64,000 bases of DNA from a virus (Duplodnaviria > Caudoviricetes). Shown here in pieces: positions 330 to 24,683 of the stretch; positions within the stretch are counted from its first letter, which is position 1, and every line of letters starts with the position of its first letter. The notes under the pieces were generated by a model that did no database searches, had not been told where the DNA came from, and worked only from the letters and a program-made list of their open reading frames with translations. Both the position numbers and the translations under genes were made by a program. The stretch covers positions 1 through 64,000 of IMG/VR virus record IMGVR_UViG_3300026161_000447. One strand, given 5' to 3'.

Positions 330-509
330 TCAATCGTCCTCGGGCTTCCGGCCCTCCCTTCGCCTTGCATACGCGGCAAGTGCCGACCGCCCACGGCGTC
401 TGCGTCGCCGGCGCTTGCCGGTCTCCGTCTGTGTGGCGCGCCCACCGGTGAACTCGGCGGCGTCTACCCCCGTGCCGGCGGCGAACATGGACTTGAGCAC
501 GCTCGCCAT
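330..509 (-). CDS. Small Arg-rich peptide (59 aa)
   Basis: ATG overlaps the protease stop (TGATG). Sequence MASVLKSMFAAGTGVDAAEFTGGRATQTETGKRRRRRRRGR... Confidence 0.55.
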   Translation of the reverse strand: MASVLKSMFAAGTGVDAAEFTGGRATQTETGKRRRRRRRGRSALAAYARRREGRKPEDD

Positions 510-1337: not shown

Positions 1338-1649
1338 CTACTGCTCGGCGTCGCCGAGCGCCTTCTCCGCCCTCAACTGCCCGAGCTCGGCGTCGCCCAC
1401 CGTCTCGACGGCGCGCTTGTAGATGCGAGCATAGCGTTCCATGCGCTCGTCGTCTGGCATGCCGGCGTCCACCCACTTCTGCAGGACGGGCTCGAGTTTC
1501 TTCATGAGTGCCCGGGCCTTGGCGGCCTTGGCGGCGCCGTCCTTCGCGATCTGCTGCAGGTTCTGCGTTGCGCGCTCAGCCAGCGCCGCATGCCTGGCGA
1601 GTTCCTGATGGAGCCGCTGAGGAACGCCTTTCAGGTCTGCAGTTGCCAC
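1338..1649 (-). CDS. Hypothetical helical protein (103 aa)
   Basis: Start overlaps the stop of the SNF2 gene. Sequence looks amphipathic-helical. Confidence 0.7.
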   Translation of the reverse strand: MATADLKGVPQRLHQELARHAALAERATQNLQQIAKDGAAKAAKARALMKKLEPVLQKWVDAGMPDDERMERYARIYKRAVETVGDAELGQLRAEKALGDAEQ

Positions 1650-4600
1650 TAGGCTCCCCCCAGATGTTCGGCGAAGATGCTGTAGAGCCCAGACTCATCG
1701 AGAGCGACAAGGGACTGCGTAAGGTCCTGTTGCTTCTTCTTGCTCTCGATGCGCTCCTGGGCCGTCTTCTCGTAGGGCGTGTTCGTCCGTATGTTGTAGA
1801 CGGTCACGTCCCGCGTCTGCCCGTTGCGGAATTCTCTGGCGATGCGCTGTCGGTGGCAGGCGTAGGTATCCGTGGCGTCCCAGTTGACGAGGACACTGGC
1901 GCCCTGCATGTTCAGCCCGAAGTTCGCGGCGTCACTGCAGATCACGTGCTTGATCGGCGAGTTCGGGTCGGCAAGCTGCTTGGCGATGGCATTGCGCTTG
2001 GCCGATGGCACGCTGGCGTCGATGACTGCGTACTCCCCCTCTTGCAGGCCGAGGCCGTCAATGATGGTCTTGTGGGAGTAGCCGTTGTGGGCAAAGATCA
2101 CCGCCCGCTCCCCGGGGTGGTTCGCCAGTGCGTCCCGCAAGAGCCCGACCTTCGGGTGGTCGGTGGTCTCGAGGTTGTTGACGGTGCGCTTGTGCTCCTG
2201 GTCGCGCGCCAGTGGGTTGACCTTCTGGCCGGCCTTGCGGGCGTCGAGGTAGGCCTTCTCCGTCGTCCGGTAGGCCTCGGCCTGCTGTGGGCTCAGGTCG
2301 GCGGTGAGTGTGTGCTCCCGGCAGCGGATAGGCTCGGCGCCGGCCTTCCCCGGCCGCAGCTCAAAGACCGTCTTCCCGCCCTCGTCCTTCTCGATGCTCA
2401 GTGTGATACCCGTGGCTACCCCTGACAGCCGCTGCTGCAGGGAGCGCTTGAGGCCCTCGTCAAACATGCCGCGGCTGGTGGCCAGCTTGCCGTAGCGGGC
2501 CATGAATTCCTTGCGCGTGCCGAGACACCCGGGCTGCAGCCAGTCGGCCAGCGAGTGCAGCTCGCTCAAGTCGTTCTTCACCGGCGTGCCGGTGTTATGC
2601 ACAACCAGACCGTTGGCGACGAAAGTCTCTGAGTGCCGAACTGACAGGTCATAGACCGTTGTCTCATGACATTCCTCGATCTCTCTGACGGGGACGGCAA
2701 TGGCCCCCTGTACAGGAGATGACGTGCACAGGAGATAGCTCACCGTGGCCTGACTGATCCCGAGCAGCTCAGCGGCAGTCTTCTGTGTCCCCCCACTCTC
2801 GATATGATCTATCGCCGCTTGTCTTCGCTCTCGCGACCGTTCGACGCGGTTCTGCTGTCGGTCGCCAGCACATGGCAAATGGAAGACAAGCCTGTGCGAT
2901 GGCCGGTGGTTGCGGAACGCTGGGCGCGCGTCTTCTCCGTGTCTGCTCTCGTAGTACCGACCGTACTGACCAAATGCCTTGAGGAGTTCCCTGATGTCCC
3001 ATGTTAGCATCTTGCTGGTCGTCGTGTAGGTGATTGCTCCGGGTTCGCGTTCCTCGTAGTGTCCATCGCTATCAGCCAGCCCGCGGAGAACCAGCGACTT
3101 AGCCTCATTGCTCCACGAGAAGACCTCTGGAGGAAGCCGCTTGGTATGCGCGCGCTGCCCGCCAAACCATCCCCAGAAAAGGTCGCCAAGTGGCCGGCTA
3201 CTGATCCTGATGTTCACGCAACCCCGGAATGGTCGAGTGTCATATGAGAGGTCAAAGTGCTCCTTGAGCCCATCCAGGTACTGCGTGGCGTCCTGGATGT
3301 CCTTGGTGGCCACAGCAATACCAAGGCGCCGGTCCTTGCCTATCCATCCATCGCCAGCGACCAATCCAACCAGGTAGGCGATAGCAGTCACCGGGACTAT
3401 GCACCGAGCCGAGTGGTTCCCTTTGCCGCGAGTTGACGCAACGCGCCCCGGGATGATCTGCGGGGCTAGATCGGAGGCTCTAGACAACGGGAGGTACGGA
3501 CCCGCCGGGCTCTGGTTCAGGTAGTTGTACCGCCTCCAACCCTTCTCGTGAGCATTGATCGCATCTGCGTAGTCACCATAGGCCGTGTACTTCTCGTGAG
3601 GCAGATGCTCCCTCAGGTCCAAGCAGGAGACTCCCTCGTCATCCATTGACGTGTCCAGTAGCAGCTTGTCGCCCTTCTGCACATCCGATCCGTTGACCAG
3701 AAGCACATCACGGCCACGAACCACATAGACCGAGTGGTCTTCAGTGACTGTGATCGAGTGCCCGTAGCGGGTGCTGATTCTGAACGTGCGCTTCCTGCAA
3801 GCGTACTTCTGGATCGCGTAGACGGGAGCCCAACACATGGCCTGGGTGGCAGGGTCATAGGAGCGGACCTCGCACAGGTCATCCTCGATGATCTGGTCGT
3901 GACGCATACCGAATCTGGATGCCATGTCCTCGATGCTGATGACTTCGTGGGTGCCGTCCGGCCATCGAACATGGAGCACCGAGTCACCGGCCACGCTCAT
4001 GAGCATCTTGTAAGGCATGTCTAGCTCGCGGGCCTTCTGCGATCTTAGGCTGCCCTTCGTGTCGTTGGCTTTGCCGCGGGTCGTGAAGTAGTGCGCCTCG
4101 TCGACGGCCATGCAGTCAAAGCCCGCGGCCTTGATGGCCTCGAAGTCATTGCGGAGGGCGTCATGGGTGATGACCGTGATGAGCTGGTCACCGGCGTAGG
4201 CGGCGTTCCTCTTCTCTTTGCTCATGCCGGAGGCAATGACGTAGTTCCCTTGGTGCTCGGGAGCTAGGAACTTCTTGATCTCGTCGCCGAACTGGGCGCC
4301 AACGGTCGCCGGCACTACGACCAGCGCCTTCTTGACCTTGCCCTGCGCGGCCAGGTGGCTGATACCACACAAGGCGACGGCTGTCTTGCCCGACCCCGCT
4401 TCGTCCGTGACGAGGATGTTCTTCTGCCGGTCCCAGAGCTTGATGTTCCCTTGCTGGTGGGGCTGGAGGATGATGTCGTCGCTTTGGCCCTCCACCGACC
4501 ACGGATTGCCCTGCTCGTCCTCCCAGCCTTCGTCCCACGACCGGCGCTTGATCTCCTGCACCTCGGCGTCGGCCTGGTATTGCTCGATGTCCTGCTCGTG

Positions 4601-6295
4601 GTACAGGTCGCGAATACCCTCGGGCGTGATGTGCAGCTCCCAGCCGCTTTCGCCCTTGCGAACGCTGTGCGTGAGGCGGTCGGCGGTGTTGACAAGCCCG
4701 AGCTCGCGGGCCTTGTCCCGCGTTCCGGCCTCCGATGACCGCCCGGGGACAACGAGCTTCGCCGGTGTTCCGCGCTCCAGGTGCAGGGCCACCTGGGCGG
4801 CGGTCTCGAGACTGCCCAGTGCGCGGCCGAGGATGCGGTCGGCTTCGTTTCGATACTGCAGGACCTTGGCATTCGCCTGCGCGGCGTTCAGTAGCCCCTG
4901 GCCTTTGGCGGCCTCGATCATGGCGTCGGCGCGGTCTGCCAGTTCCATGCTGGCCTTCACCGCCGCCCCCGCTGTGGCGGCGCTTTGGGTGCCGATGAAC
5001 TCCCGGAGGGCCGCGGCCGCCTTGTCGGGCGAACCCGTCTTCTCCGCGATGTACTGGGCGATCACCTGTGCGGCGCCCGCGGTACCCAGCTCCTGTGCAG
5101 TCTTCGAGTCGAGGACCGTACTGCCGCAGGCCGCGGCGGCAAGGCCCGCCCCGGCGTCGGCGGCCCCCTGCAGGACGTGCTTGGTCATGGCGCTATTGGG
5201 GTCGCTCGTGGCGTCCAGGAGCGCCTTGTTCGCCCTGATCTTCTCGGCCTCCAGGTGCCGGTCCGCGAAGTACTGCGACTGCTCTTCCGCCGACAGCGGC
5301 TTGTAGTGCAGCTCCAGCGCGCGGGCCGCGGCTTCCCCACCCTTGTTCAGCGCGCGCTTCAGGCTGCGCTCGTGGCCGATGGCGTTGGCCTCCTCAGCTA
5401 CAAGGCTCTTGATCTCCGTGAACTGCTCGGGGGTCAACGGCAGCTTGGCCGGCTTGGACTTGCCGTCTCCTGCGGCGGAGACGGTGGGGGGCTCGGCGGG
5501 CTGGCCGGTCAGCGCCTCGATGCCGGCCGCCTCGTTGACCTGGGAGATGGCGTCGTCGATGGCCTTGTCCGCCGCTTCCTTGCGGCGTTGCTCGTGCTGT
5601 TTGAGTGCCTGCTGGACGAAGTCCTTCTGGCCCGCCTCGCTGGTGTTCAGGCGCTTTGCTTCCGCTATCGCCTTGGCCTCCAGCTCCTTGCGCTCGTCCT
5701 CGCTGATGTCGGGAACGCCGCCAATGATCTCGCTGACTCGCTCCCGCAGTTCACGCTTCGCCTTCTTTGTCTGATCGGTGGCCTCGGCGAGCTTGGCCTC
5801 CTGCTTCGCCCGCTCCTCTTCCGACAGCTCCGGCTTCTTCCTCTTCTTACGGTCCTTCTTTGCTTCGTCCGCGTCCTTATTGTCCTTCTTGAAGCGGGTG
5901 AAGTTCATGCTGCCGCCGGCGCCCCCGACGACTACGTACTCATCACCCAGGTCCTGCACAAGCACCGGCTTGCCGGGTTCGGCGTTGTTCGGGTGTACGG
6001 TGACCCACTTCAAGCCCATCTCGCGGATCTCGGTGTTCGTGAAGTGAGGCTTGACTTTCTTGATGGGGTCGGCCTTGAGCAGTCGTTCCGGCATGGGCTC
6101 GTTGGGGACGTACACGCCGTAGGTGTCGGCTATCGTCTCGCAGAAGCGGGCGGCCTTGCGGACACGGCGCGGGATAGCCGGTCGCCCCTTCCTCACCTGC
6201 TCCGGCAGCAGACCCGTGGCCTTCCCCAGGCCGACGAGGTATTTGATGAACTGCCGGTCGCTGGCCGTCAGGCCGAGTAGATCGCGTTCGCTCAC
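1649..6295 (-). CDS. Large SNF2-family helicase-like protein with an intein, encoded in the head operon
   Basis: GTG start at 6295 overlaps the upstream stop (GTGA); the track start at 6550 is an overextension. Motifs: LQPHQ, DEAGSGKT (Walker A), AVDEAH (Walker B), MLM/TGTP (motif III, split by the intein), DAANFGLNMQ and RQRIAREFRNGQ. Confidence 0.9.
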   Translation of the reverse strand: MSERDLLGLTASDRQFIKYLVGLGKATGLLPEQVRKGRPAIPRRVRKAARFCETIADTYGVYVPNEPMPERLLKADPIKKVKPHFTNTEIREMGLKWVTVHPNNAEPGKPVLVQDLGDEYVVVGGAGGSMNFTRFKKDNKDADEAKKDRKKRKKPELSEEERAKQEAKLAEATDQTKKAKRELRERVSEIIGGVPDISEDERKELEAKAIAEAKRLNTSEAGQKDFVQQALKQHEQRRKEAADKAIDDAISQVNEAAGIEALTGQPAEPPTVSAAGDGKSKPAKLPLTPEQFTEIKSLVAEEANAIGHERSLKRALNKGGEAAARALELHYKPLSAEEQSQYFADRHLEAEKIRANKALLDATSDPNSAMTKHVLQGAADAGAGLAAAACGSTVLDSKTAQELGTAGAAQVIAQYIAEKTGSPDKAAAALREFIGTQSAATAGAAVKASMELADRADAMIEAAKGQGLLNAAQANAKVLQYRNEADRILGRALGSLETAAQVALHLERGTPAKLVVPGRSSEAGTRDKARELGLVNTADRLTHSVRKGESGWELHITPEGIRDLYHEQDIEQYQADAEVQEIKRRSWDEGWEDEQGNPWSVEGQSDDIILQPHQQGNIKLWDRQKNILVTDEAGSGKTAVALCGISHLAAQGKVKKALVVVPATVGAQFGDEIKKFLAPEHQGNYVIASGMSKEKRNAAYAGDQLITVITHDALRNDFEAIKAAGFDCMAVDEAHYFTTRGKANDTKGSLRSQKARELDMPYKMLMSVAGDSVLHVRWPDGTHEVISIEDMASRFGMRHDQIIEDDLCEVRSYDPATQAMCWAPVYAIQKYACRKRTFRISTRYGHSITVTEDHSVYVVRGRDVLLVNGSDVQKGDKLLLDTSMDDEGVSCLDLREHLPHEKYTAYGDYADAINAHEKGWRRYNYLNQSPAGPYLPLSRASDLAPQIIPGRVASTRGKGNHSARCIVPVTAIAYLVGLVAGDGWIGKDRRLGIAVATKDIQDATQYLDGLKEHFDLSYDTRPFRGCVNIRISSRPLGDLFWGWFGGQRAHTKRLPPEVFSWSNEAKSLVLRGLADSDGHYEEREPGAITYTTTSKMLTWDIRELLKAFGQYGRYYESRHGEDARPAFRNHRPSHRLVFHLPCAGDRQQNRVERSRERRQAAIDHIESGGTQKTAAELLGISQATVSYLLCTSSPVQGAIAVPVREIEECHETTVYDLSVRHSETFVANGLVVHNTGTPVKNDLSELHSLADWLQPGCLGTRKEFMARYGKLATSRGMFDEGLKRSLQQRLSGVATGITLSIEKDEGGKTVFELRPGKAGAEPIRCREHTLTADLSPQQAEAYRTTEKAYLDARKAGQKVNPLARDQEHKRTVNNLETTDHPKVGLLRDALANHPGERAVIFAHNGYSHKTIIDGLGLQEGEYAVIDASVPSAKRNAIAKQLADPNSPIKHVICSDAANFGLNMQGASVLVNWDATDTYACHRQRIAREFRNGQTRDVTVYNIRTNTPYEKTAQERIESKKKQQDLTQSLVALDESGLYSIFAEHLGGA
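2594..3997 (-). mobile_element. Intein (468 aa) with LAGLIDADG homing endonuclease and an extra HTH
   Basis: Begins SVAGDS, ends ANGLVVHN followed by Thr. Removal restores YKMLM-TGTPVKN. LAGLIDADG-like helices YLVGLVAGDG and LRGLADSDG. HTH-like TQKTAAELLGISQATVSYL. Confidence 0.92.
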
Positions 6296-9200
6296 TGTGC
6301 ATTCCCCCCGAAGGCCAGCAAGAAGCTCTTGCCCATGTTCCTGGCGGTCTTCCAGGGGTCGATGGACAGGCGGCCGCCGTTGGCCTCGAAGTCGTCTATC
6401 ACCGCGGGCAGGATGTAGCTCTGGCGGCAGACGGCGGGTGTGTGCCCGAGGCGTTCGGCGGTGGCGGCGACAGCCTGCTTCACTCGCTGCTTGATCTCCT
6501 TCTTGGCCAGGGGCTGCCGGCTGCTGAGGCGCTTGAGCTCCTCGAAGCACAGGCGCGTCGCGTGGTAGGTGCGGAAGTCCTTGGCCGAGACCCCGTAGTC
6601 TCGGAGCCAGTCGTTGACGTGGTTGGCGCGGATCGGGTACTGACGGCCATCCCGGTGGTACCAGAACAGACGGTCACCCGGCGCGTCGCTTGCGAGGTGG
6701 GCGATGAAGTCCGCGAGGTCAGGGTCGGTGGTTGCCGTATCCCATGGCACCTGCTTCTTGCCCGTGAACTGGAAGCGGATCGTGGCGCCATCCACGGTCA
6801 CATGCTCGGGGCTCAGGGTCGTCACGCCGTAGGTGCCGTGCTTCTCCGCGTACTCATCGGTGCCGATACGAAAGCAGCAGCGGTCGATCAGTGCGACGAT
6901 GGCAGCCACGACCTTGCTCTGGGGGGTGTCCCCCTGCGCCAGATCGGACTTGACGGCCTCGACGATGCGGGGTAGCTGCTTCGCGAGGTGTGCGACGCGC
7001 CGGAACTTCTCGGCCTTGGCCGCCGCGAGCGTCTCCTCGTCGTACTGGTACTGCACATTACCCTTCGGGGTCGTGACCTTCGCGACGGCCTTTGACCGCT
7101 GCGCGCGATACGCTGGCTGGACGCGCACGCCAGTCCTGGTTCGCTGAGTGCTGCCGCGGACCGAGGTGGTGTCGGTGGCCTTCTGCAGGGCCGACAGGGC
7201 CTTCTGCAGCGTGTCGCCGGCCCGCACGGCCGCGAACAGCTCGTCGAACGCGGCCTTCAGCAGCTTGCGTTCCTCACCCCTCGGGTAAGGTCGCAGTTCC
7301 GCGTCACTGTCCTTCCCTACGTATACTAGGTAGTTGTTCTCCCTGCGCTTCTCTTTCATCAGGTCTAGCAGGTAGGTCTCAAAGGCCCGGGCGAACATCT
7401 CGTGGGGCCGGGTCCAGTAGCCCTTTGCCTTCCCGCCCTGTTGGATGATTGATGCGGAGTAGAACTGCGAGTCAGAGCTGGACACCGTGACGGACTTGGC
7501 CTTGGTCTTCTTGCAGATGTAGTTCACCATCTGCTGCCGTGCCTCATCGGTGAAGCGGTAGCGTTTGTCGATGAGATCGACGGCGGCCTGGGCATTGTTG
7601 CCAGCACTCTTCAGGTAGTAGTCGTAGGTCCCGTGCTTCTCTGGAACCTCGGCATCTGTCGGCTTGAGTTCAACGCGACCGGTACCGTGGTAGATCAGCT
7701 TCATGACCTTGCCGCAGGCATCGAGCACAGGCGTCGCGCCCCGGGAATGCGAGAGGTACTGTCCATTGGTCCCAGTCTCGAACTGGCCCACAATGTGGTC
7801 GAAGAAGTGGGCCCACTCATGGCCGAGGGTCCCCGCACCACCCATCTTCGTGAGGTTGATGACGACCTTTCCCGGCTCATAGTGCGCAGCGGCTTTGCCG
7901 GTCCCGCGGGCCCCGAACGCCAGGGCTAGCCGGCCGTTCAATGAGAGGTCAGTGGCGGAGATTCCCAGCAGATCGGCCATGTCCTGGAAGGCCTCTGCAC
8001 ACCGGTCTACATGGATACGGGAAGCATCATGGTCCATCCAGTTCCCGAACTCGACCCCTCGCAGGCCAAACCGCTTGAGGTAGTCATCGGGGCGGCGAAT
8101 GTGGATGGCCTTGCCGCCCTTGCGCTCATACCCCGTGGGTACTGTGCGCTCCCATCGCTGCTGGGTCTCGGTGACCTCCTCAGCCGACTTCGTGCGCTGC
8201 TTGGGCACGAACTTCCCGTCGACAACCTTCCCCGCCCATTCCTCGGCTCGTGCCGCAGCTTCCTCGGGGGTGAGCTGGCGGTGCTTGCCGTCTATCGTGC
8301 CGTAGGCGTGGAAGTCCTGACCGTCTTCTGCCGACACGTAGGTGTGTTTCCAACTGTAGAAGGTCAGGTCCCGCTTAGCCTTGCCGTCCAGCCACTTCAG
8401 CAGGACGGGGGTATGGACTAGGGCCGTGGCCAGAGCGACTTGGTATTCAGTCGGTGGCGGAGGAGGCTCCTTGATGAACTGCGCCCCAGCCGCTTTCCAC
8501 TTCTCGTAATGGACCCATTTCGAGGTTGCCCTCAGTTCCTGGGAGATGCCCTCCAGGCGCTCCCTCAGCTCCTTGCTGGACGTGGCCCCCTCCACGAAGT
8601 CGCGTAGCATCGTGACCGCGCGGAAGTAGTTGAGCCGGTCGGAAGCCGACAAAGAGTCGAACTTCGCGGGTATGCAGCTATAGACAGTCATGGCGCCCAT
8701 GATGAACACGTTCGACCGCCCGGCTGCACGCATGCTCTCCACGGTTGGCGCCGGCCAGATCGTGGCGCGGTTGCAGGTGCGTCGCGCTGCGTCGGGGTCC
8801 TCGGATTCCAGCTTCTTGAGGTTAGCCTCAGTCGGGTTGTTGGCGAAGCGATCTCGGGCATTGGCGATGTCCTTGCGGGCGCCGCCGATCTTCTCGCCAA
8901 CGTCCTTGTAGGTCCGCTCCGACTTGCCCGTGGCTTTGACGGCCATGCGCTCTGCTAAGGCATTGAGGGCGTCGGCCATGCTCGCGAACTCGCCCAGGCG
9001 AGAGTAGCGTGACTGCCCCTCGGGCCGCACGCGCACGAGGTACTTGGCGCCGGGCTTTGTGATCTCCGCTTGCCCGGACTCGAGCAGCTTGTGGATGCGA
9101 TCCATCTGCCGCTGCGTGAGCCCGGCTGTGTTGCGGACCTTGACGGCGTCTGCCTTCGGCGCCGCCTTCTTCCTCGTCTCTGTGTGTGCTGGTTGCACGA

Positions 9201-10725
9201 CGACCTTGCCGGTCTTCTGCCGCAAGGCACGGGTCTTGACCGTCACCTTCTGAGTGGGTCCTCCGTCCTTGACAGCCTTCCTCAAGGCCAACGCGAAGCT
9301 CTTGGCAAGACCCTTGACCTTCCCGCGCGTGATGTGTGTCTGCGGGACGCCCCGGAACTCGTCGTGCTTCTTGATCGTGGCCGTGATGTTGTAGGTCTTC
9401 CCCTCCTCGCCGGGCTCGTTGCTGGCAAACCACGTGAACTCATTGCCGTCGTCATCGAGGAGCTTCGTGATGTAGACGATGCCGTAGTTGCCGTCGTAGG
9501 GCTTCACGCTGGTGATCTTCAGCTTGAAGTCACGGCGTTCGCCGATGGCGCCCACATGCTGTGATCCCTTGCCAGCCGCGATGTCCTTCGCGCGCCGCTC
9601 GCTCTCCTTCTCCCGGTCGTACAGGGGGATTAGGGACGCCGCTATGCCGATCTCATCGGCACCGATGACGTCCTCCTTGCACAGCAGGCGCAGGTTCATC
9701 AGGTAGTTGGTATTCGCCCACTTCTCGGGCTTCTTGCGTATCCAGGAGAGTGCCGCCTTCGCCTTCCTGAGCGCCTTCTCGGGCACAGGCTCTGTACGTT
9801 GGTGCTTAGGGGGGAACATCCAATCAGCGGCGGCGTCCGCCGTCGCGTAGTCGCCGAACTGCGCCTCTGCGCGCGATGTCCACCCATGTCTTTCTATGCT
9901 GGCCACGACATACCCCAGGTACTTCTCGATGCTGAAGTACTTGTTTGCCGGAAGCTCATCATTGTCCCAATACGCTGTGTCGCCGTCGTCACCCCAGTCC
10001 TCCACTTCTTTGACGAACTCAGCGATGGCAGCGAGGAAGTCGGCAAACCTGGCGGGGTCCCCGTGACCCATGAAGTCCTTGAGGCACGATCTGCCGACCT
10101 GCTTGTACTCCCCTGTCTCTGTACTGCGGATGATGTAGGTGGCATTGCGCTTGCGCTTCGTGCCGCAGTGGTCGCAGGTCATGTCGGCCTTGCGGTACTT
10201 GCGGGGTATTTCCTGGTCTCCGATTGCGAAGACCATGTTGCCGGAGGTCAGCGGCTTGAGGGCCGCTACGAACTGCCAGTCTGCATAGCGAGGCTCTGGC
10301 CCATTGACAGTCACCTCGACAAGACCGCGCCACAGGTCTTCAACAAAGCGGGTCTGCAGTTTGACCTTCTTCGTCTCTCCCAGTTCGAGCGTGATGGGGT
10401 CGGTGCCGATGCGCTTAGCCCTCTTGTTGAGGTCGTTGATCTTGGCCTGAAGCTTGGGCAGGTCGTCTTCGTTGATCCAGACCTTCGCTGGCTTCGGGGC
10501 CTCAACGGGGCTCGCTGCCTTCAGGCTGGCCCGGGGCTTGGCCAAGGCCTTCTCTGCGCTTGGCTTCGTGTCGGCCTTGGGCTTCGGCGCGGCCTTCTTG
10601 CGCGTCTCGGTGTGAGCGCGCTGCGTGACCACTTTCCCCGACGCAAGGTGCCGGGTCCTCGCGCGCACAGGGACCTTCTGCGTGGGGCCATCCGACTTGG
10701 TGAAGCGCAGCAAGAAGCTACCCAT
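6292..10725 (-). CDS. Large polyvalent protein: Cys-containing/OB-like domain + LPD5/LPD1-like zincin region + C-terminal type IB topoisomerase
   Basis: DVGEKIGGARKD, RGVEFGNW, GAGTLGHEWAHFFDH (HExxH) and YWTRPHEMFARAFE resemble LPD5/LPD1. Topo IB pentad present: FRIG, TGKK, KDFRT, LGHT, RQSY. Confidence 0.85.
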   Translation of the reverse strand: MGSFLLRFTKSDGPTQKVPVRARTRHLASGKVVTQRAHTETRKKAAPKPKADTKPSAEKALAKPRASLKAASPVEAPKPAKVWINEDDLPKLQAKINDLNKRAKRIGTDPITLELGETKKVKLQTRFVEDLWRGLVEVTVNGPEPRYADWQFVAALKPLTSGNMVFAIGDQEIPRKYRKADMTCDHCGTKRKRNATYIIRSTETGEYKQVGRSCLKDFMGHGDPARFADFLAAIAEFVKEVEDWGDDGDTAYWDNDELPANKYFSIEKYLGYVVASIERHGWTSRAEAQFGDYATADAAADWMFPPKHQRTEPVPEKALRKAKAALSWIRKKPEKWANTNYLMNLRLLCKEDVIGADEIGIAASLIPLYDREKESERRAKDIAAGKGSQHVGAIGERRDFKLKITSVKPYDGNYGIVYITKLLDDDGNEFTWFASNEPGEEGKTYNITATIKKHDEFRGVPQTHITRGKVKGLAKSFALALRKAVKDGGPTQKVTVKTRALRQKTGKVVVQPAHTETRKKAAPKADAVKVRNTAGLTQRQMDRIHKLLESGQAEITKPGAKYLVRVRPEGQSRYSRLGEFASMADALNALAERMAVKATGKSERTYKDVGEKIGGARKDIANARDRFANNPTEANLKKLESEDPDAARRTCNRATIWPAPTVESMRAAGRSNVFIMGAMTVYSCIPAKFDSLSASDRLNYFRAVTMLRDFVEGATSSKELRERLEGISQELRATSKWVHYEKWKAAGAQFIKEPPPPPTEYQVALATALVHTPVLLKWLDGKAKRDLTFYSWKHTYVSAEDGQDFHAYGTIDGKHRQLTPEEAAARAEEWAGKVVDGKFVPKQRTKSAEEVTETQQRWERTVPTGYERKGGKAIHIRRPDDYLKRFGLRGVEFGNWMDHDASRIHVDRCAEAFQDMADLLGISATDLSLNGRLALAFGARGTGKAAAHYEPGKVVINLTKMGGAGTLGHEWAHFFDHIVGQFETGTNGQYLSHSRGATPVLDACGKVMKLIYHGTGRVELKPTDAEVPEKHGTYDYYLKSAGNNAQAAVDLIDKRYRFTDEARQQMVNYICKKTKAKSVTVSSSDSQFYSASIIQQGGKAKGYWTRPHEMFARAFETYLLDLMKEKRRENNYLVYVGKDSDAELRPYPRGEERKLLKAAFDELFAAVRAGDTLQKALSALQKATDTTSVRGSTQRTRTGVRVQPAYRAQRSKAVAKVTTPKGNVQYQYDEETLAAAKAEKFRRVAHLAKQLPRIVEAVKSDLAQGDTPQSKVVAAIVALIDRCCFRIGTDEYAEKHGTYGVTTLSPEHVTVDGATIRFQFTGKKQVPWDTATTDPDLADFIAHLASDAPGDRLFWYHRDGRQYPIRANHVNDWLRDYGVSAKDFRTYHATRLCFEELKRLSSRQPLAKKEIKQRVKQAVAATAERLGHTPAVCRQSYILPAVIDDFEANGGRLSIDPWKTARNMGKSFLLAFGGNAQ

Positions 10726-10745
10726 GGCGCAATCCCTCGGCGTGG

Positions 10746-13700
10746 TCAGAACAAGGACGTCGTCTGCGGTGCGACCTCCGGCTCATCTTGCTCGTCATCG
10801 AAGACAGGCCGTCGCAGCACCCGGCGCTTCGTCGCCTCGATAGCCTCGTGGGCCAGCAACCGTCGCTCAACGGTGTCCCTGAGTTCCTCGAACGTGGATA
10901 GGGCGCCGTCGATCTGGGCGAGTGCTACCTCCAAGTCGGTGGGGGTGAAGGCGTCCACCGTGAACTCTGCCTTCCGCTCGTTGTAAGTCTTCTCCAGCAC
11001 ATCGCGCACGGCATCGAGGATGTGGTTCAGCTTCGCCTTCTGCTCCTGTCGGCGCACCTGCTTCTCCCCGCCGGTTGTCTCCTCGTCGTCGAACATGCTA
11101 CGCTGTTGGTTGGCGCGGATGTACTCTGTCGCCATTCCGCCGAGAACGCTGGCCGTTAGGCCATTGGCCCGCGCGTGGCGGGCCATGCGCACCATGTGCA
11201 GCTCTCGCTCGCGGCGGACCTTCGGGTCGCGCACCGAACTGTCGATGGTCGGGTCCACCAGCCGTAACAGGGAGTGGGCATGGGCGGGCGTCAGGTGCCC
11301 GCGGTCAACCATCTCCTTGACCTCACCCGGGAGGTCGTTGAGCACGATGTAGTAGTTGACTCGGTCACGCTTCTTTCCCGTCTTCCTCGCGACGTAGGCC
11401 CTGCCAAGGGCTTCGAGCTTGTCCTGTACCTCGAAGTCTCGGAAGTTGGAGCCCCTCCACTCCTTGCGGCGCTTGGCCCGCGCGATCTCCCCATCCGCGA
11501 GCTGGCGGTAGGCCGTGGCTTCCTCTGTGGGCGAGACATTCTGGCGATTGAGGTTCTCGATCACCTGCTCGGCCAATGCATCCTCGTCAGAGACACCCTC
11601 GCGGACCACCGCACGGATGGTCTTCATGCCGTTCATCTTGATGGCGCGATACCGCCGCTCCCCGGCGATGATCTGGTACTGGACCTTCCCCGCTCCGTCG
11701 ACCGGCTTGACCACGATGGGGGTAACGTTGCCGCCGGTCTGCCGAATGCTGTCCGCTAGCTCCTGCATCTCCCTCTGCGCGAAGTGCTTCCGATGCTGGT
11801 TCGGGTCCGGCTGCACCTTTGCGATGGATATCTCGACGATCTGCTCGGAAGCCGGTGCTTGCGTCCTCGCCGGCTCGGCGTCGGCTTTCTTGCGCGTCGC
11901 CCTGTGCGGACGGACGGTCACCACCTGGCCGCTCTCCGTGCGGCGCGTGGAGCCCTTCACGTTGACCTTCTGTTTGGCGCCGGAGGCCGTCGACTTGCCG
12001 ACGTGGTAGATGCGGAGCATCTCCTGTGTAAGCCCCGAATCCCTCTCCAGATCGTCGGGAACCGCGTCTCGCCGCTGCTGGGCCAGTGCCATCGCCTGAA
12101 AGAGCTTGACCGCGGAAGCCTTGTCTCTGATGATCCTCATCTCGACGTCGTGGTGGTAGGCAGTAGACGGTATCGCGCGGCCGTTGGCAGCCGCGTCTCT
12201 GACCACTCTCCCTGCTGTCTTCAGCCCGACCTCCTGACCCACGATGTAGACGGGGCGAGCCATTCCTTTGAACTGGGCCATGGCAATCGCGGGCCTTGCC
12301 TCGGCAATCACATCCTTGGGGTCCGGTCCGTAGTACACCGTCCCATGCTCGAACTCGAACCTCCCTTCTTTGGCGTCCTCAATACGTTTCCTGTCAGCGA
12401 TGCGCTGCTGTTCCCGCTCTCGCTCCTTGACGATCATCTCATCGTAGGAAAGCCAGTTGCCGGGGGAGACTGGCCTCCGGGAGTTCAGGGCATTGGCGCG
12501 CGCCTCCTCGGCAAGCCGCTTGACGTCCTCGTCCTTGGGGTTGGAGAGGATGTTCTCCGTGAGCCATTGAGCAAACTGCTTGCGGGTCTGCCCGAGGAAC
12601 TCCGCTCTTCTTGCTGCCACTTCCTCTGGTGTCCTGGCTTTGCGCTTCCTCGGCTTGCTGGATGCCGGGGCTGGCTTGGGCTCTGCCTTCTTTCTCGTTG
12701 CCGTGTGTTGCTTCACGGTCGTCGTCTTACCGGACTTGGTGCGCCGAGTGCTGGCCTTGACAGGGACCTTCTGCGTTCCAGACTTGCGGAAGACCATGCG
12801 GAATGACCGGAACAGGCTCATCTGCGGCTGTTCGTCTGCAGCGAGAGGCTCCTGCTCGACGTCGAAGAGCTTCGCCTGTTTGCGCTCGAGACGGTACCGC
12901 GCGTCGCCGCCTGGGGTGCGCTCTGGGGTGACCTCATACTCGTCGCCCATACTCAGGAACTGTTCTTCAAGATCCCGAGTGATCTTCAGGGGGCTGAACA
13001 CGGCGCCATACCTGGAGACCAGCCAGCCGAGAAGTCTCTGGTGCACATCCATGTTCTCAAACCAAACCGACGTGAGCGAGTCGGTGACGTGCGCCCCATC
13101 GTTCTCGATCTCCACGCGCAGGGACGCCACATGGTTGCCGGCCTCGGCGTAGATGGCGAAGTCCTGCTTGGGGCCATTGCCGAAGCGACGAACCAACAGG
13201 TCTCCACTCTTGGGGCTCTTGAGCGTGAAGCGCTCTGTCTCCGGGTGCCTCTTCTCCATCGCGTCGGCCATCATGGCATTACGCTGCGTGGCCGTATGCG
13301 GATTGCGCCTCTTGGGCCGTGCTCGGGTATCCTTGCGCCATGAGGATGCGACCTGGACCGTCTTGCCGGCGACGGTGCGTGTGTGGGCCTTGACGCGCCC
13401 CTTGCGGATGGGCTCGAGGTCGCGGAGGAGGACGCGAGCACCGCCGTCCGTGCGGCACCAGGTGCCCAGGGACTTGCCGACTCGCTCCGGGTCCACCTCC
13501 CGATCTCGCTTGCGGGACGGTCTAGCGGGATCGGGGTTGTCCTCGTCTATGCCCCAGAACGGGCCGATAGCGCGGTATGCCATCTCGTCGTAGAGTAGAT
13601 TCTGCCTCTGGCGATGGCGTCGCCACTGGTCGGGGGTAAGGCTCTTCTTGTTCCACCCCTCTTCTTGGTGCTCTCCCCACAGGCGCAGTATCTGCTTGTC

Positions 13701-14852
13701 ACTCATCCTGCGCAGACCGGGTATATCCTCAGTTACTGGCTTGTCGGACATAGGCCCATAGAATATCGGCTTGCCGTCGCGACCGATGGCCTGCTTGGGC
13801 TTCGCGTCCTTGCGGTGCTCCACATGGGCCCTGACCTGGACAGTCTCCCCACTCTTCGTGCGGCGCGTAGAGGCCTTCTTCTGCACGACAGCCTTCGCCA
13901 GAACTGAAAAGCCCCGCCGGGTGGCGGGGCGAGGGGTCTTGCGGAAGGCGAGTAGTGGTCCCGGACTCAGTCCCTTGTACATGCTGGCCTCTTGCGGGTC
14001 GAAGGTACCCACGTTGCCGACCGCCTTGATCTGCTCGGGTTTCAAAGCAACCACCTCAACGTTCTCCCTGTCGTCACGCCAAGCCATCACACCATCGTAG
14101 CCTGCCGCGCGCAGTGAGGCCGTGAACTCTCCTGGCGAGTTGATGAACCCTCCGCCTGTGAGTCTGGCCCCGACGCTGCGTACTCGGTCGCGGGTCTCGG
14201 CGGCACCTTCATGCGTCCTGAAGTCGATGACGAAGGGGCGCTTGATGCTGATGTAGCACTCGTAGACGCGCATGTGGGTGCCGCCCAGCTTCTGTGAGTA
14301 CAGGTCCGCTTCCTCACGACTGGAGGTGAAGTAGAACCCAGTACCGTAGAACCCGGCGTCGCTGGTGGTGCCGATCAAATGGGGGTCGAAGCTGTCGAAC
14401 TCCCCGCGAGGCGTCCCGTGGTACAGTACAAGCGGGACCATCGCCTCGGGCTCACCCGTCTCGGGGTCGACGACCTTGGAGGCGTGTTCGGGATCGTGCT
14501 CCCAGTCACCGAACCACGCCTTGAAGGCCTGCGAGCGGGTGCCATTGGCCTGGTAGTCTGCCACCGGGTCGTAGCCGGTCTGTGGATTCTCGTGCTTGTC
14601 GCCCTTCCTGCGGTGCTCGCGCACCTGGACTGTCTTCCCCGACGGCAGCCGGCGGCTGTGGGCCTTGACCGTGGACTTGGCTACTGGGAAGGCGAGGCCA
14701 AATCCTCGGCGCTGGGCGAGGTTGCGCTCTGCTCCAGCGTCAGACGGATCTGCCGGTCTCTCAACGCCCTTCGAATGGTATCGAACGAGGCTGCCTCGCC
14801 GCTCGCGACCCGCAGATTCACTCTCTCCTGCCGGTCGCGGCGAATGACACAC
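10746..14852 (-). CDS. Large polyvalent protein: H-Y-E ADP-ribosyltransferase (ART-PolyVal-like) + possible GNAT-like domain + ParB/Srx domain; true start uncertain
   Basis: FKAWFGDWE..ASKVVD..GEP..LYHGT, GFYF, GYDG and EVVA. ParB motifs PDPNQHRKHF, IIAGERRYRA and IENLNRQ. Confidence 0.85.
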   Translation of the reverse strand: MCHSPRPAGESESAGRERRGSLVRYHSKGVERPADPSDAGAERNLAQRRGFGLAFPVAKSTVKAHSRRLPSGKTVQVREHRRKGDKHENPQTGYDPVADYQANGTRSQAFKAWFGDWEHDPEHASKVVDPETGEPEAMVPLVLYHGTPRGEFDSFDPHLIGTTSDAGFYGTGFYFTSSREEADLYSQKLGGTHMRVYECYISIKRPFVIDFRTHEGAAETRDRVRSVGARLTGGGFINSPGEFTASLRAAGYDGVMAWRDDRENVEVVALKPEQIKAVGNVGTFDPQEASMYKGLSPGPLLAFRKTPRPATRRGFSVLAKAVVQKKASTRRTKSGETVQVRAHVEHRKDAKPKQAIGRDGKPIFYGPMSDKPVTEDIPGLRRMSDKQILRLWGEHQEEGWNKKSLTPDQWRRHRQRQNLLYDEMAYRAIGPFWGIDEDNPDPARPSRKRDREVDPERVGKSLGTWCRTDGGARVLLRDLEPIRKGRVKAHTRTVAGKTVQVASSWRKDTRARPKRRNPHTATQRNAMMADAMEKRHPETERFTLKSPKSGDLLVRRFGNGPKQDFAIYAEAGNHVASLRVEIENDGAHVTDSLTSVWFENMDVHQRLLGWLVSRYGAVFSPLKITRDLEEQFLSMGDEYEVTPERTPGGDARYRLERKQAKLFDVEQEPLAADEQPQMSLFRSFRMVFRKSGTQKVPVKASTRRTKSGKTTTVKQHTATRKKAEPKPAPASSKPRKRKARTPEEVAARRAEFLGQTRKQFAQWLTENILSNPKDEDVKRLAEEARANALNSRRPVSPGNWLSYDEMIVKEREREQQRIADRKRIEDAKEGRFEFEHGTVYYGPDPKDVIAEARPAIAMAQFKGMARPVYIVGQEVGLKTAGRVVRDAAANGRAIPSTAYHHDVEMRIIRDKASAVKLFQAMALAQQRRDAVPDDLERDSGLTQEMLRIYHVGKSTASGAKQKVNVKGSTRRTESGQVVTVRPHRATRKKADAEPARTQAPASEQIVEISIAKVQPDPNQHRKHFAQREMQELADSIRQTGGNVTPIVVKPVDGAGKVQYQIIAGERRYRAIKMNGMKTIRAVVREGVSDEDALAEQVIENLNRQNVSPTEEATAYRQLADGEIARAKRRKEWRGSNFRDFEVQDKLEALGRAYVARKTGKKRDRVNYYIVLNDLPGEVKEMVDRGHLTPAHAHSLLRLVDPTIDSSVRDPKVRRERELHMVRMARHARANGLTASVLGGMATEYIRANQQRSMFDDEETTGGEKQVRRQEQKAKLNHILDAVRDVLEKTYNERKAEFTVDAFTPTDLEVALAQIDGALSTFEELRDTVERRLLAHEAIEATKRRVLRRPVFDDEQDEPEVAPQTTSLF

Positions 14853-15112
14853 CCGCCCTCCAGAACGATGCTGCGTTCCTCGCGACGGCGGTTCTTGGCA
14901 GTTAGGGGCGCCTTGACTAGCTCGCTCTTCTTGCGGGGATCAACAGTCCCCAGCAGCCGCGCATAGCGCCGCGCAAACTGTCCTTCATTCCCCTTCTCTA
15001 TAGATCGAGGCTGGTCTTCCCAGTTGTTTCTGCTCTTGCGGAACGACAGCAGGAACCCCTTCTTCACGCCCTTCGCCCGCCGGTAGCCTGTCTTCACGAG
15101 GTTGTTTGGCAT
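14681..15112 (-). CDS. Head-operon protein (143 aa), possibly the frameshifted N-terminus of the ART/ParB protein
   Basis: ATG immediately after the MuF stop. Carries KKGFLLSFRKS and WEDQPR..GQF. Overlaps the next ORF by about 170 nt. Confidence 0.6.
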   Translation of the reverse strand: MPNNLVKTGYRRAKGVKKGFLLSFRKSRNNWEDQPRSIEKGNEGQFARRYARLLGTVDPRKKSELVKAPLTAKNRRREERSIVLEGGCVIRRDRQERVNLRVASGEAASFDTIRRALRDRQIRLTLEQSATSPSAEDLASPSQ

Positions 15113-16132
15113 CTATTTCTCCCGGCCGGCATGGCGGTGCTCGGTGCGCGCCGCCTTCTTCGCATAGCCCTTGCGCCGCTTCTGCTTTGCCTGGCGGTGC
15201 ACTACAATCCCGCCGTCCACTCCGGTCCCCGTGCCCGTGAAGTCCTTGTGCTCGAGGCTCTCGAAGGGAAACCTCGCCTCGCCGAAGCGCGGCTTTCCCT
15301 CCGGGCGCTCCACCGGCACGAGCCGGCAGTGGCAGCGCGTCGTGCACGCGAGCTTGCCGCTCTGGGGGGTAACGGCCATCGTCGCCAGCTCCCGCGCCGA
15401 GTAGACGCCATTCCCCCACCGGCCACCGGCCCCGATCTGCTCCACCTGCCCGGGCGTCAGCAGGAACCTGCCCGTCAGCTTGCTCTTCGATCCCGCCAAG
15501 TACGAGCAGTCGATGCAGGTCTCACTGCCCTTCATCGTCCACTTGAGGTACCTGTCCGCCGAGAGGTCGGCGTAGACGAAGCCCTGCCAGTAGAGCTCCT
15601 CAAGGGCGTTGACGTACAGATCCGCGCGCTTCCTGTACTCCATCGAGCCCTCTCTGTGCTCGATGTCTGTCAGGAAATTGTCGGCGTAGGCGTTCTCATT
15701 CAGCCTCTGCCGGCGGACGATCTTCTTCTCGTTGGGGAGCAGGCCGCGCTCCGACGTGTTTGCGCCGCCGGCGCGCAGCCCACACTCGAAGGCCGACAGG
15801 TAGGACCTGTCGAGAAGGGCGTTGACCTGCGCGACCGACCGCCTGTGCGTGCGCTTGATGAGCTGCTCAAGGTGGTAGCGTGAGGACGACGACATGCCGT
15901 CGTCGGCGCGCAGGATTGTCGCCGTGCGGATCAGGTCGTCGACGCCGCCGAAGATTGCGTGGACCTGGACGCGGAAGCTGCGCTTCAGGGCCTCGAAGTC
16001 CCGGCGCCCCCATCCCCGCTTACCCTTTGGGAGTGGGGCCTTCAGGGCCTTCTCTATCGCTTCGGCGAAGGCGCCAATCGCCGCCTCGTCGGCAACACCC
16101 GGGGGGACGTGTAGCCTCGCCAATACCGTCAC
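15113..16132 (-). CDS. MuF / SPP1 gp7-like head morphogenesis protein
   Basis: Directly after the portal (GTGA overlap). CIDC and CTTRCHCRL cysteine motifs resemble the MuF C-terminus. Confidence 0.7.
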   Translation of the reverse strand: MTVLARLHVPPGVADEAAIGAFAEAIEKALKAPLPKGKRGWGRRDFEALKRSFRVQVHAIFGGVDDLIRTATILRADDGMSSSSRYHLEQLIKRTHRRSVAQVNALLDRSYLSAFECGLRAGGANTSERGLLPNEKKIVRRQRLNENAYADNFLTDIEHREGSMEYRKRADLYVNALEELYWQGFVYADLSADRYLKWTMKGSETCIDCSYLAGSKSKLTGRFLLTPGQVEQIGAGGRWGNGVYSARELATMAVTPQSGKLACTTRCHCRLVPVERPEGKPRFGEARFPFESLEHKDFTGTGTGVDGGIVVHRQAKQKRRKGYAKKAARTEHRHAGREK

Positions 16133-18045
16133 CGGCGACCACGAGGCCGGACCACGACCTCCAGCACCTTGCCCACGGCCTTCCCGAATGGCTGCGCCTG
16201 CCCCCCGTCACCGCCGGGGTCCTCGTCTTCGCCCTCGTCGCCCGCCGGCTGCTGGCCCTGCGCCTTCTGCCACTGCCTGACCTGCATCATGTCCTGGAAC
16301 TGCTGGGGCGGCCCCGCCTGCTGGGCGTCTTGCCACTGTTGCGCCTCGTCTTGAGGCGGCGACAGGTCGGCTTCGTGTTCCGCCTGCCAGATCATCTGCA
16401 GCCCGGCGTTCACCGGCGCGTTGGGCCACATGGCCCACTTGCCGTCCTTGTTCTCGTAGATGCGTTCCACGAGGTCCTTGCAGCGGTCCTCGTAGCGGGC
16501 CACGTCGGGGTAGTTGTCGGTGACATACCGGTCGATCTTCTGATAGAGCTCGCGGTCGATGGGGTCTTTGATCGGCCGCATGTCTCTCCGCGCCCGCACC
16601 TCGTTGACCGTCAGAACGCCCGACTGCAGGTCCTGCTCGTCGTACTGGCGCTCCTTCTCCTCGTCGGTGGGGACAAGGTTGCGCCAGCGGAAGCGGTACG
16701 GGCCGACGCCACTGCTGTCGGCGAAGAACCGCATGACGACGCGGCGGTTGATGAGGTCTTCAACCGCCGCCATGATCGAGAAGAAACCCTTGGACCGTTG
16801 CTGCCGGACCCTCTCGTCGCCACCCGTGCCCGTCTGCATGCCGCCGACTGTCAGGAATGCCTGGAAGTTCACGTCCTCGGCCGCTACGTGGTAGAGGCTG
16901 CAGGCGACGGCCATCAGGAACGACAGCCAGTTCTTCCAGTACATGTCCTGCTTCTCTGTCTGGCGGAAGGGCGTGTACGTGAGCTTCGCGTCGGGGGCTC
17001 CGAACAGCACCGGCAGGCGGTTGAGCTTGTCATTGCCGGAGCCCGGCTTCGTCAGTTCCCAGAGGAATGTCTCGAGCCACTCGGTGTTCCAGTCGCCCGT
17101 GGCCGAGACCAGGCCGGGGGGCACCGCATTGGTGGTGAAGTAGTTAACGTTGTGTTCGACGGCCGTCATCATCCCCGACACGATCTCCACCAGGCTTGCG
17201 AGTTCCGGCCAGCCGTACCCAGCGTGCGCGAGGTCGGCCTTGCCATTGCGCACGAGTGGCAGGACCTCGTCCCACGTGTACTCATTTGCCGGCCGGTTCA
17301 GTTCGTCGAGTTCGACGAACTCTACGCGCTTGCCGCGGCGGTACTGGGGCTTGTAGCCCACGTCGGGGATATTGCCCCACTGGTCTTTCCACTGCTGCTT
17401 CGGTGTCTGGTCGGCGAATCGCACCGTCGCCGCGTCCATCGCGCGCATGAATGCCACGGGGTACATGTTGGCGTTATTGGCGGGCTCCACGCGAATGCAC
17501 GACCAGTCCAGCGTCAGACTGTCGCTCAGTACCTTCTGCAGCAAGACGGAGAAGCGGTCGCCCTCCTCCTGCTGGTCGCCGCTCCAGACGCCCACGGCGT
17601 TGTCCTGCTGGCGGCGGTACTGGACGCCGCCGTGGACGAGTATCTCCGTGATCTGCTCCATGCGCTTGCGGTCTTTTGCCGTGGGAGCCCCGGCCTCGTC
17701 GGCCATGTAGACCTCGAAGCCCTTGTCGTCCCGCGTCATCGTGGGCTTCGCGTAAGTGGCGGCCTCCATGATGATCGCCGAGTGTATGGCCCTGACGAGC
17801 GGCGTCTCGGCCATCTTGCGCAGGAAGTCGGAGGTCTTCTTCGTGGCGCCTTCGATGTCGCGGACACCACGGTACAGGCCCTGCCGGTAGAGCATGGGCA
17901 AAAGCTGGCGAGGCGTCCCCACAGGCCGTTGGCCGCCGAACAGGCCCTTGATGACCTCTTCCTCCACCATCCTGCGCAGGTCGGTGGGGGCTGTCGGCAC
18001 CAGGCTTGTCGGCACCAGGATGTTCCCGCGCTTCTCGTAAGCCAT
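16129..18045 (-). CDS. Portal protein (HK97-like)
   Basis: Likely start MAYEKRG at 18045. YFTTNAVPPGLV and LTVNEVRARRDMRPI motifs. Follows the terminase. Confidence 0.88.
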   Translation of the reverse strand: MAYEKRGNILVPTSLVPTAPTDLRRMVEEEVIKGLFGGQRPVGTPRQLLPMLYRQGLYRGVRDIEGATKKTSDFLRKMAETPLVRAIHSAIIMEAATYAKPTMTRDDKGFEVYMADEAGAPTAKDRKRMEQITEILVHGGVQYRRQQDNAVGVWSGDQQEEGDRFSVLLQKVLSDSLTLDWSCIRVEPANNANMYPVAFMRAMDAATVRFADQTPKQQWKDQWGNIPDVGYKPQYRRGKRVEFVELDELNRPANEYTWDEVLPLVRNGKADLAHAGYGWPELASLVEIVSGMMTAVEHNVNYFTTNAVPPGLVSATGDWNTEWLETFLWELTKPGSGNDKLNRLPVLFGAPDAKLTYTPFRQTEKQDMYWKNWLSFLMAVACSLYHVAAEDVNFQAFLTVGGMQTGTGGDERVRQQRSKGFFSIMAAVEDLINRRVVMRFFADSSGVGPYRFRWRNLVPTDEEKERQYDEQDLQSGVLTVNEVRARRDMRPIKDPIDRELYQKIDRYVTDNYPDVARYEDRCKDLVERIYENKDGKWAMWPNAPVNAGLQMIWQAEHEADLSPPQDEAQQWQDAQQAGPPQQFQDMMQVRQWQKAQGQQPAGDEGEDEDPGGDGGQAQPFGKAVGKVLEVVVRPRGRR

Positions 18046-18047
18046 GC

Positions 18048-20161: not shown

Positions 20162-20166
20162 TGCAG

Positions 20167-24562: not shown

Positions 24563-24683
24563 AAGTTTGGTTTTCCTTTCTTTTGGCGCCCGAGACGTAC
24601 CGTGTATCGCCGCCCCAGGCACCCAAAGTGTTCTGGTCACATTATGTAACCACGTTACGCAGCCCGCACGCTTCGCATCTCGT

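Follow-up and report, generated by a model that had tools for sequence, protein, structure and literature searches.

Site-plus-hairpin linkers between the modules of portal-proximal polyvalent proteins in an uncultured phage: a candidate address for prohead protease processing and delivery with DNA

Polyvalent proteins are giant, multi-domain proteins encoded beside portal or MuF genes, predicted to be co-delivered with DNA and heavily shuffled in their architectures (Iyer 2017, PMC5512222). The text of that survey does not use the term 'linker' and describes no repeated tag between modules. Since 2017 the question has stood of how these anti-defence proteins enter virions and whether they function as a single chain or as individual enzymes. 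One representative, phi24B gp47, an LPD5/LPD1/LPD38 polyvalent protein of an Stx phage, is abundant in virions (bioRxiv 10.64898/2026.04.10.717836). Other delivered proteins include the T4 internal proteins IPI-III and Alt, which combine a capsid targeting sequence (CTS) with cleavage by gp21, and the ejection proteins of phiKZ and SPN3US (PMC9026906, PMC10052503, PMC7411985). Here we describe two polyproteins, A and B, whose modules are joined by linkers that pair a candidate prohead protease site with a basic hairpin tag. The window, that is the whole stretch of DNA analysed, comprises bases 1-64000 of an 86,075-bp IMG/VR virus contig (IMGVR_UViG_3300026161_000447; G+C ~65%) and includes the head-assembly operon of a ~86-kb phage with an SPO1/Dolphis-like capsid module.

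Polyproteins A and B, both encoded on the minus strand, together comprise about nine enzyme modules in series. Polyprotein A (10746..14852) has the order tag-ART-tag-unknown-tag-unknown (possibly GNAT-like)-tag-unknown-tag-ParB, and its GTG at 14852 is the sole in-frame start 5' of the first tag, with GGAGG upstream; the database gene call, P0004, begins within that tag. Polyprotein B (6292..10725) consists of a leader, a tag, a phrog_2319 module, a second tag, an LPD/zincin (HEWAH)/LPD1 module, a third tag and topoisomerase IB (Topo IB). Pfam recognizes ART-PolyVal, ParB_N and HTH_ParB in A and LPD1 and Topoisom_I in B, and B also matches PHROG families shared with phage proteins of 2,800-2,900 aa. 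Both qualify as polyvalent proteins, as each holds at least two unrelated effector-type domains of that repertoire in one polypeptide. They lie directly 3' of terminase and portal and 5' of protease, scaffold and capsid, a virion-type gene context. The module names proposed in the first-pass annotation are borne out by Pfam for the ART, ParB, LPD1 and Topo IB modules, and its 'Cys/OB-like' module corresponds to phrog_2319, and the GNAT-like and LPD5 assignments are tentative. The Cys-rich phrog_2319 module occupies residues 82-471 of B (9313-10482) and stands alone as a gene in the jumbo phages Ralstonia RsoM2USA, Salicola SCTP-2, Aeromonas PX29 and 250-kb Vibrio phages. The HEWAH zincin-type motif lies at residues 969-973 of B (about 7805-7819), and this region is possibly a metallopeptidase domain of the kind that Iyer et al. 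call MPTase.

Distributed along these two chains are eight copies of a ~34-aa basic motif, all on the minus strand. In A, the core of A1 (14583-14684) carries VAKS in register with the hairpin and precedes ART-PolyVal. A2 (13794-13895; 13794..13901 with its linker) has LAKA and A4 (12675-12776; 12675..12791 with its linker) has FRKS, each ahead of an unknown module, while A3 (13308-13409) has IRKG and precedes the tentatively GNAT-like module and A5 (11874-11975; 11874..12002 with its linker) has VGKS and precedes ParB. In B, tag B1 (10582-10683; 10582..10704 with its leader) follows the leader MGSFLLRFTKS, ending in FTKS, and precedes the phrog_2319 module; B2 (9154-9255; 9154..9285 with its linker) follows KSFALALRKA, ending in LRKA, and precedes the LPD module; and B3 (7075-7176; 7075..7188 with its linker) follows LQKA, with Topo IB about 20 aa further on. 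The first-pass annotation had reported eight copies at approximately these positions and exactly these tetrapeptides, and both observations stand. A hidden Markov model (HMM) built from the eight copies and run against the six-frame translation of the whole 86,075 bp matched those eight alone (39-55 bits each; next best E 0.5). A chance resemblance is ruled out by the 162 protein clusters that a profile of the tag recovers, by conservation as peptides despite only ~65% nucleotide identity, and by the concentration of h-x-K-[S/A/G] (h, hydrophobic) in the linkers of A and B.

The tags of A and B share a strongly basic consensus of ~30 residues, QKVxVKAxTRRxKSGKxVxVxxHxxxRKKA, and each joint has three parts: a hydrophobic stretch (G/S)F-L-L-x-F, the site h-x-K-[S/A/G] (h, hydrophobic) and the basic beta-hairpin. 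The leader (G/S)F-L-L-x-F-x-K is conserved ahead of the site, and the larger conserved element, the hairpin, lies after it. The hydrophobic stretch is also found at the N-termini of B and of the small protein P0009 upstream of A, and at the C-terminus of B. To model the tag, we used AlphaFold2 with a 25-sequence alignment of the 54-residue linker-plus-tag of A4; residues 15-43 are predicted as one long beta-hairpin (pLDDT 93-94) with its turn at KSGK, and the leader 5' of the K-S bond is of low confidence. A Foldseek search of this model against the PDB gave no significant match (E>1), and the weak top matches, mostly HU/IHF arms and the Tn5 DNA clamp, serve as a lead only. Domain libraries are silent over the tag: Pfam gave nothing at E<=10 for the window copies or at E<=1 for canonical copies, NCBIfam gave nothing at E<=1, and the PHROG matches to A and B sit on the flanking modules, with none covering the tag.

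In close relatives, the tags coincide with domain boundaries, as the first-pass annotation would lead one to expect. The relative P0007 is a B-type protein with an ART module inserted between two tags, and P0008 lacks the LPD module through a deletion that spans exactly from tag to tag. The tag ahead of ART in P0007 equals the A4 tag but for one residue and is unlike the A1 tag, which indicates that tags recombine on both sides. In P0005 and P0006, modules of A are replaced by others, and P0011 is a further close relative rearranged at its tags. The gene starts and stops of relatives fall within linkers; in the related locus L068, with 78% identity in the capsid protein, the gene for A stops just past tag A3 and the C-terminal remnant of the ParB module persists as a separate ORF after it. 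The boundary between A and B in the window is likewise a linker interrupted by a stop and a restart (...QTTSLF, stop codon, 20 nt, MGSFLLRFTKS; compare the internal linker ...QMSLFRSFRMVFRKS). Such interchange of fused and split forms at linkers is expected if the chains are cut there anyway. A search for related loci with P0002 as query found none.

P0009, a 143-aa leader module (14681..15112, minus strand; MPNNLVKTG...KKGFLLSFRKS) without a tag, is probably the N-terminal part of polyprotein A, shifted by a -1 frame offset. The two reading frames overlap by 172 nt (14681-14852), third-position G+C (GC3) places the change of coding frame near 14720-14750, and in relatives P0009 and A form a single fused ORF (1678 aa in one; the N-terminus of P0005). 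The offset may reflect a genuine frameshift mutation, recoding or an error of assembly; a programmed -1 frameshift was considered, and no slippery heptamer is visible in the overlap.

The candidate site is shared with the head-assembly genes of the same operon. The 253-aa ORF at 509..1270 (minus strand) is a prohead serine protease of the gp21/assemblin fold. It is similar by tblastn to proteins annotated as prohead proteases in SPO1-like Bacillus phages (best E 2e-6), its Atlas neighbours carry Peptidase_S78 and S77, and the sole significant fold match of its model is T4 gp21 (5JBL, E 3.7e-4), with herpesvirus protease next. Residues H67, S134, K17 and K173-S174 are invariant among 11 homologues. 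Its catalytic core lies between PIIK-S and ITK-S, the bracketing noticed in the first-pass annotation, and both ends of the core keep their sites across the homologues (K17, K173-S174). The capsid protein (phrog_752; genome 83898-85397) has relatives in SPO1-like phages (108 Bacillus phage records), Staphylococcus and Lactobacillus phages and Pseudomonas phage Dolphis. With protease and capsid both SPO1/Herelle-like, the earlier pointer to the Twort/A511 group was apt, and we found no paper documenting K-S cleavage in A511/Twort-like capsids.

Relative to shuffled sequences, h-x-K-[SAG] is enriched in the window protease (5 observed, 0.3 expected) and scaffold (7, 1.1 expected), in the protease and scaffold of L068 (7 each, with 1.6 and 1.7 expected, respectively; p<=0.002) and in the scaffold of the cultured, tag-less phage Dolphis (9, 1.5 expected; p<=0.002). 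In the tail genes, plain K-S dipeptides are slightly under-represented (4 versus about 7 expected). Within A and B, 13 of the 24 occurrences of the motif fall in linkers, defined as the 25 residues before a tag, which make up 7% of residues (binomial p 1e-9). Scaffold sites are kept between the window phage and L068 (LLKG/LLKS, FVKS/FMKS, VRKS/LQKS and VQKS/VHKS), as is the capsid leader site RIIKS. The motif common to cargo, scaffold and capsid would have Lys at P1 and is not the L/I-x-E of T4-type cleavage, a different code within the same logic. Judged by its enrichment and conservation in protease, scaffold and capsid N-termini, h-x-K-[SAG] appears to behave like a prohead protease site.

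The scaffold and protease also carry features that may bear on recruitment to the procapsid. The scaffold contains long poly-Asp/Glu tracts; its N-terminal part lies at 1..251 (minus strand), with LLK-G and FVK-S, and its run of Asp residues spans the junction of the contig ends. The protease has a poly-Arg tail. Directly after the protease gene, a 59-aa ORF (330..509, minus strand) begins MASVLKS, continues with MFAAGTGVDAAEFTGG and then runs into poly-Arg. It copies the capsid N-arm, as seen by comparing VLKS-MFAAGTGVDAAEFTGG with capsid LAKS-IFTAGTGVDAASFTGG; its counterpart is fused in frame to the protease in L068 (16737-16910), and in the locus L077 the counterpart is a 948-aa tagged protein (10831-13677). 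In four lineages the protease C-terminal tail copies the capsid N-terminus right after K-[SA], with such tails found in this phage with L068 and L077, in the locus L078 and in Dolphis. This mimicry of the capsid N-arm is probably a device that targets the protease into the procapsid. A distant protease homologue, P0179, has a weak tag-like hairpin (AAHPRKLASGKVAQI) at residues 301-332, within its basic C-terminal tail.

To evaluate the distribution of the tag, we searched 1.84 billion representative proteins with a 34-column profile, which recovered 162 clusters at E<=1e-3; the canonical form is hhK[SA]xVKAHTRRTKSGKVVQVKEHxDxRxKK. Where gene context was examined, the members are polyvalent proteins encoded near the portal, each with 2-5 tags of which one is usually N-terminal. 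All of the large members examined that have a Pfam match carry polyvalent-type domains (ART-PolyVal, InPase, Topo IB, SNF2, ParB, LPD1, ddrB-ParB and ATLF), and the 37 tags and 24 Pfam domains of 11 proteins show zero overlaps. The tag starts at residues 2-5 in 8 of 9 foreign proteins; in the locus L070, seven genes in a row after the portal each carry an N-terminal tag, and the same pattern is seen in L071, L077 and L078. Conservation of the peptide extends to phages with portals no more than about 26-32% identical to the window portal. Of 266 tag instances, 71% have h-x-K-[SAG] at most 18 aa upstream. In derived tags of the TQKV type, K-V has taken the place of the in-register K-[SA], and another h-x-K-[SA] stands 2-8 residues upstream, which suggests that the site is selected separately from the hairpin.

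Among 65 IMG/VR loci with ART-PolyVal, one real copy was found, in L015, which shows that the tag is not a general feature of polyvalent proteins. Neither tblastn nor pattern searches detected a tag among plasmids, 50,697 records of cultured phages or 185,579 species genomes, a weak negative given the short queries. At the DNA level, degenerate patterns of HTRRTKSGK and KAHTRRTKSGK had no matches beyond chance ones in IMG/VR and none in genome contigs. The full texts searched do not mention the tag motif strings. Tandem VKGYTRKTKSGK hairpins also occur away from phages, in small proteins of bacterial chromosomes that look secreted. P0048 (L076:6001-6327) and similar proteins of 90-135 aa combine apparent signal peptides with tandem VKGYTRKTKSGKxVxVKGYTRK hairpins.

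These observations can be brought together in a scheme towards which we lean slightly, in which the polyproteins are packaged and cut by the prohead protease at the tagged linkers and the freed enzymes are co-ejected. Cleavage, packaging, the binding partner of the tag and co-ejection are steps that we infer by analogy, the scheme being modelled on the T4 internal proteins and the phiKZ/SPN3US ejection proteins. Polyproteins A and B would be built into the procapsid core, where the gp21/assemblin-fold serine protease would cleave after Lys at h-x-K-[SAG], a type of site at which it would also process its own termini, the scaffold and the N-terminus of the capsid protein. The freed enzymes would each start with a basic hairpin, which would bind them initially to the poly-acidic scaffold and afterwards to the packaged DNA, so that they exit together with the genome. 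The acidic scaffold, the poly-Arg protease tail and the tag-like hairpin of P0179 suggest that recruitment to the scaffold is electrostatic and that the cargo is then passed on to DNA. Delivery of A and B with DNA is also consistent, by analogy, with the virion proteomics of phi24B gp47; the LPD module of B has its homologue in the corresponding Stx-phage protein (VT2-Sakai). As a more tentative proposal, the linker may act as a portable two-part cargo address, in which the leader and site are read by the protease and the retained hairpin docks the cargo on scaffold and then on DNA. If so, any module with the cassette, whether fused or encoded by a separate gene, would be encapsidated, released singly and co-ejected, a natural plug-in system for injected effectors in which, unlike the T4 CTS, the address is kept on the mature protein.

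Several observations weigh against cleavage by the prohead protease and co-ejection as set out above. The first-pass annotation had every module carrying a tag, which holds for the eight joints, but P0009, the SNF2 protein and some ART-InPase joints in relatives have none. Tags at extreme N-termini have only 1-4 residues before them, which leaves little for protease recognition, and a small-protein subfamily (MKKEKxVKAHTRR...) lacks the site altogether. The capsid site beside the N-arm in L068 is D-S rather than K-S, the AlphaFold model of the protease is modest (mean pLDDT 59, core 70-85), and every tag-bearing phage found is metagenomic. The secreted-looking bacterial proteins indicate that the hairpin is not intrinsically a virion signal. 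Finally, in half of the tags K-[SA] stands in fixed register with the hairpin and so could be a structural part of the tag rather than a cut site. This register is equally what one would see if the polyvalent proteins stay whole, with the hairpins serving as spacers between domains, able to bind nucleic acid or some other polyanion, and h-x-K-[SA] as the first turn or strand of the motif, an explanation that we consider rather unlikely. Delivery of uncleaved chains has precedents in N4 vRNAP and in the plasmid polyvalent proteins ArdC/TraC1 (Iyer 2017, PMC5512222), phi24B gp47 is reported to be a single virion protein of very large size (bioRxiv 10.64898/2026.04.10.717836), and the weak, non-significant fold neighbours of the hairpin are DNA-wrapping arms and a DNA clamp. 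Module shuffling at the tags would then show only that linkers tolerate recombination. However, a chain that stays whole needs neither a tag on every module nor one on the N-terminus of separately encoded modules, and the genes freely split and fuse within linkers. The independent enrichment of h-x-K-[SAG] in scaffold, protease and capsid leaders, even in a tag-less phage, and its return upstream of derived tags also fit poorly with intact chains, and many tagged modules (InPase, SAM lyase, zeta kinase and ART) are not DNA enzymes.

Processing could also be the work of a metallopeptidase, since a zincin motif lies within B itself, and this too counts against the prohead protease as the cutting enzyme. 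The candidates would be the zincin-like HEWAH domain, an HExxH at residue 969 in the LPD module, or the protein encoded at 23813-24733, which matches PhageMetallopep (PF18894), and MPTase autoprocessing has been discussed for polyvalent proteins, as in P1 DdrB (Iyer 2017, PMC5512222). We regard this as improbable: h-x-K-[SAG] is likewise found in typical prohead protease substrates, namely the scaffold, both ends of the protease and the capsid leader; the signature is present in Dolphis, whose 19-kb head-module locus has no annotated polyvalent protein or metallopeptidase; and many tag-bearing proteins and arrays show no metallopeptidase domain. The swapping of modules at tags might further suggest that the repeats are a DNA-level feature, either recent duplications or recombination hot-spots that aid cassette exchange, with no peptide function. 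This explanation is scarcely credible and was rejected, as it is largely refuted by the copies themselves, which share ~65% nucleotide identity without long identical runs and are thus kept as peptides rather than as recent DNA repeats; the peptide is also conserved across the divergent portal backgrounds noted above. With these alternatives weighed, cutting by the prohead protease at the tagged linkers, followed by co-ejection, is the explanation that we carry forward.

The late operon runs on the minus strand as terminase, portal, P0010, P0009, A, B, SNF2, protease, scaffold and capsid. A small terminase, weakly supported, is encoded at 19688-20284 and the large terminase at 18048-19691. The portal protein (16129..18048; Pfam Phage_portal and phrog_12) lies in an ORF that is open up to 18513, with a likely start near 18048, and shares 75% identity with the L068 portal across residues 157-791. 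Adjoining the portal is P0010 (15113..16132; 339 aa), which carries a CxxC...CHCRLVP motif, has no match in Pfam, PHROG or NCBIfam, and is kept ahead of the tagged arrays in L068 and L071. Its nearest named Atlas cluster is Phage_Mu_F (0.92, 133 shared features), a weak match; position and the CxxC...CHC motif fit a MuF-like protein, as a lead only. Downstream of B, the SNF2 helicase gene (1649..6295) has no tag, and its GTG start at 6295 overlaps the TGA stop of B. A LAGLIDADG intein, at about 2594-3997, comprises a homing endonuclease and a helix-turn-helix (HTH), and the L068 orthologue (1112 aa) is without it. A 103-aa ORF lies between the SNF2 gene and the protease ORF on the same strand. 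The scaffold poly-Asp run is cut off at base 1 of the contig and continues from the opposite end (G000 85476-86075), which indicates that the contig is circularly closed, and the CheckV completeness of 58% is probably an underestimate, the head module being complete. The PhageMetallopep gene lies among replication genes and adjoins a DnaB-type helicase gene (24684-26942) with a weak N-terminal DUF3854 match.

A conserved ~30-aa hairpin that would be retained, together with a K-type site at module boundaries, across many uncultured phages, appears to be undescribed. As a system it is not wholly new, since its parts, polyvalent proteins and T4-type processing by a prohead protease, are known. 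The site-plus-hairpin cassette makes the question of how polyvalent proteins are packaged directly testable, and it explains the free fusing, splitting and module swapping of these genes. For the annotation of metagenomic phages, the tag also offers a marker of virion-delivered cargo. If it suffices for encapsidation, it would be a small handle by which proteins of choice could be loaded into phage capsids in the laboratory.

Comparison with described systems places the linkers between several of them. As modelled, the tag resembles the beta-ribbon arms of HU/IHF in being a two-stranded, Arg/Lys-rich hairpin with a Gly-containing turn, but it is a solitary hairpin without a dimeric body and without a significant match (E>1). 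With MuF-fused polymorphic toxins and phi24B gp47 the locus shares portal-proximal effector genes, and capsid packaging is known for those systems; these have a fused MuF or other domain and no repeated tag, and the phi24B capsid protein is not proteolytically processed. As in T4, there is a gp21-fold protease and a short motif in which P3 is hydrophobic and P1 charged (L/I-x-E in T4; putatively h-x-K here), the same motif occurs in scaffold and protease, and T4 provides the example of basic cargo that is built into the prohead core and leaves with DNA. Unlike T4, the putative P1 residue is Lys rather than Glu and the presumed cargo is an enzyme polyprotein rather than single small proteins; no sequence similarity was seen. 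The T4 CTS lies before the scissile bond and is discarded, whereas the ~30-aa element lies after it and would be retained. The closest likeness is to the polyvalent proteins (PMC5512222), with which A, B and their relatives share the repertoire of ART-PolyVal, LPD1, ParB, SNF2, Topo IB and InPase. Those proteins differ in that their processing is ascribed to internal MPTase domains, whereas the chains described here lack a fused MuF domain and have a conserved site and hairpin at their module boundaries, and the boundary site matches the other substrates of the prohead protease.

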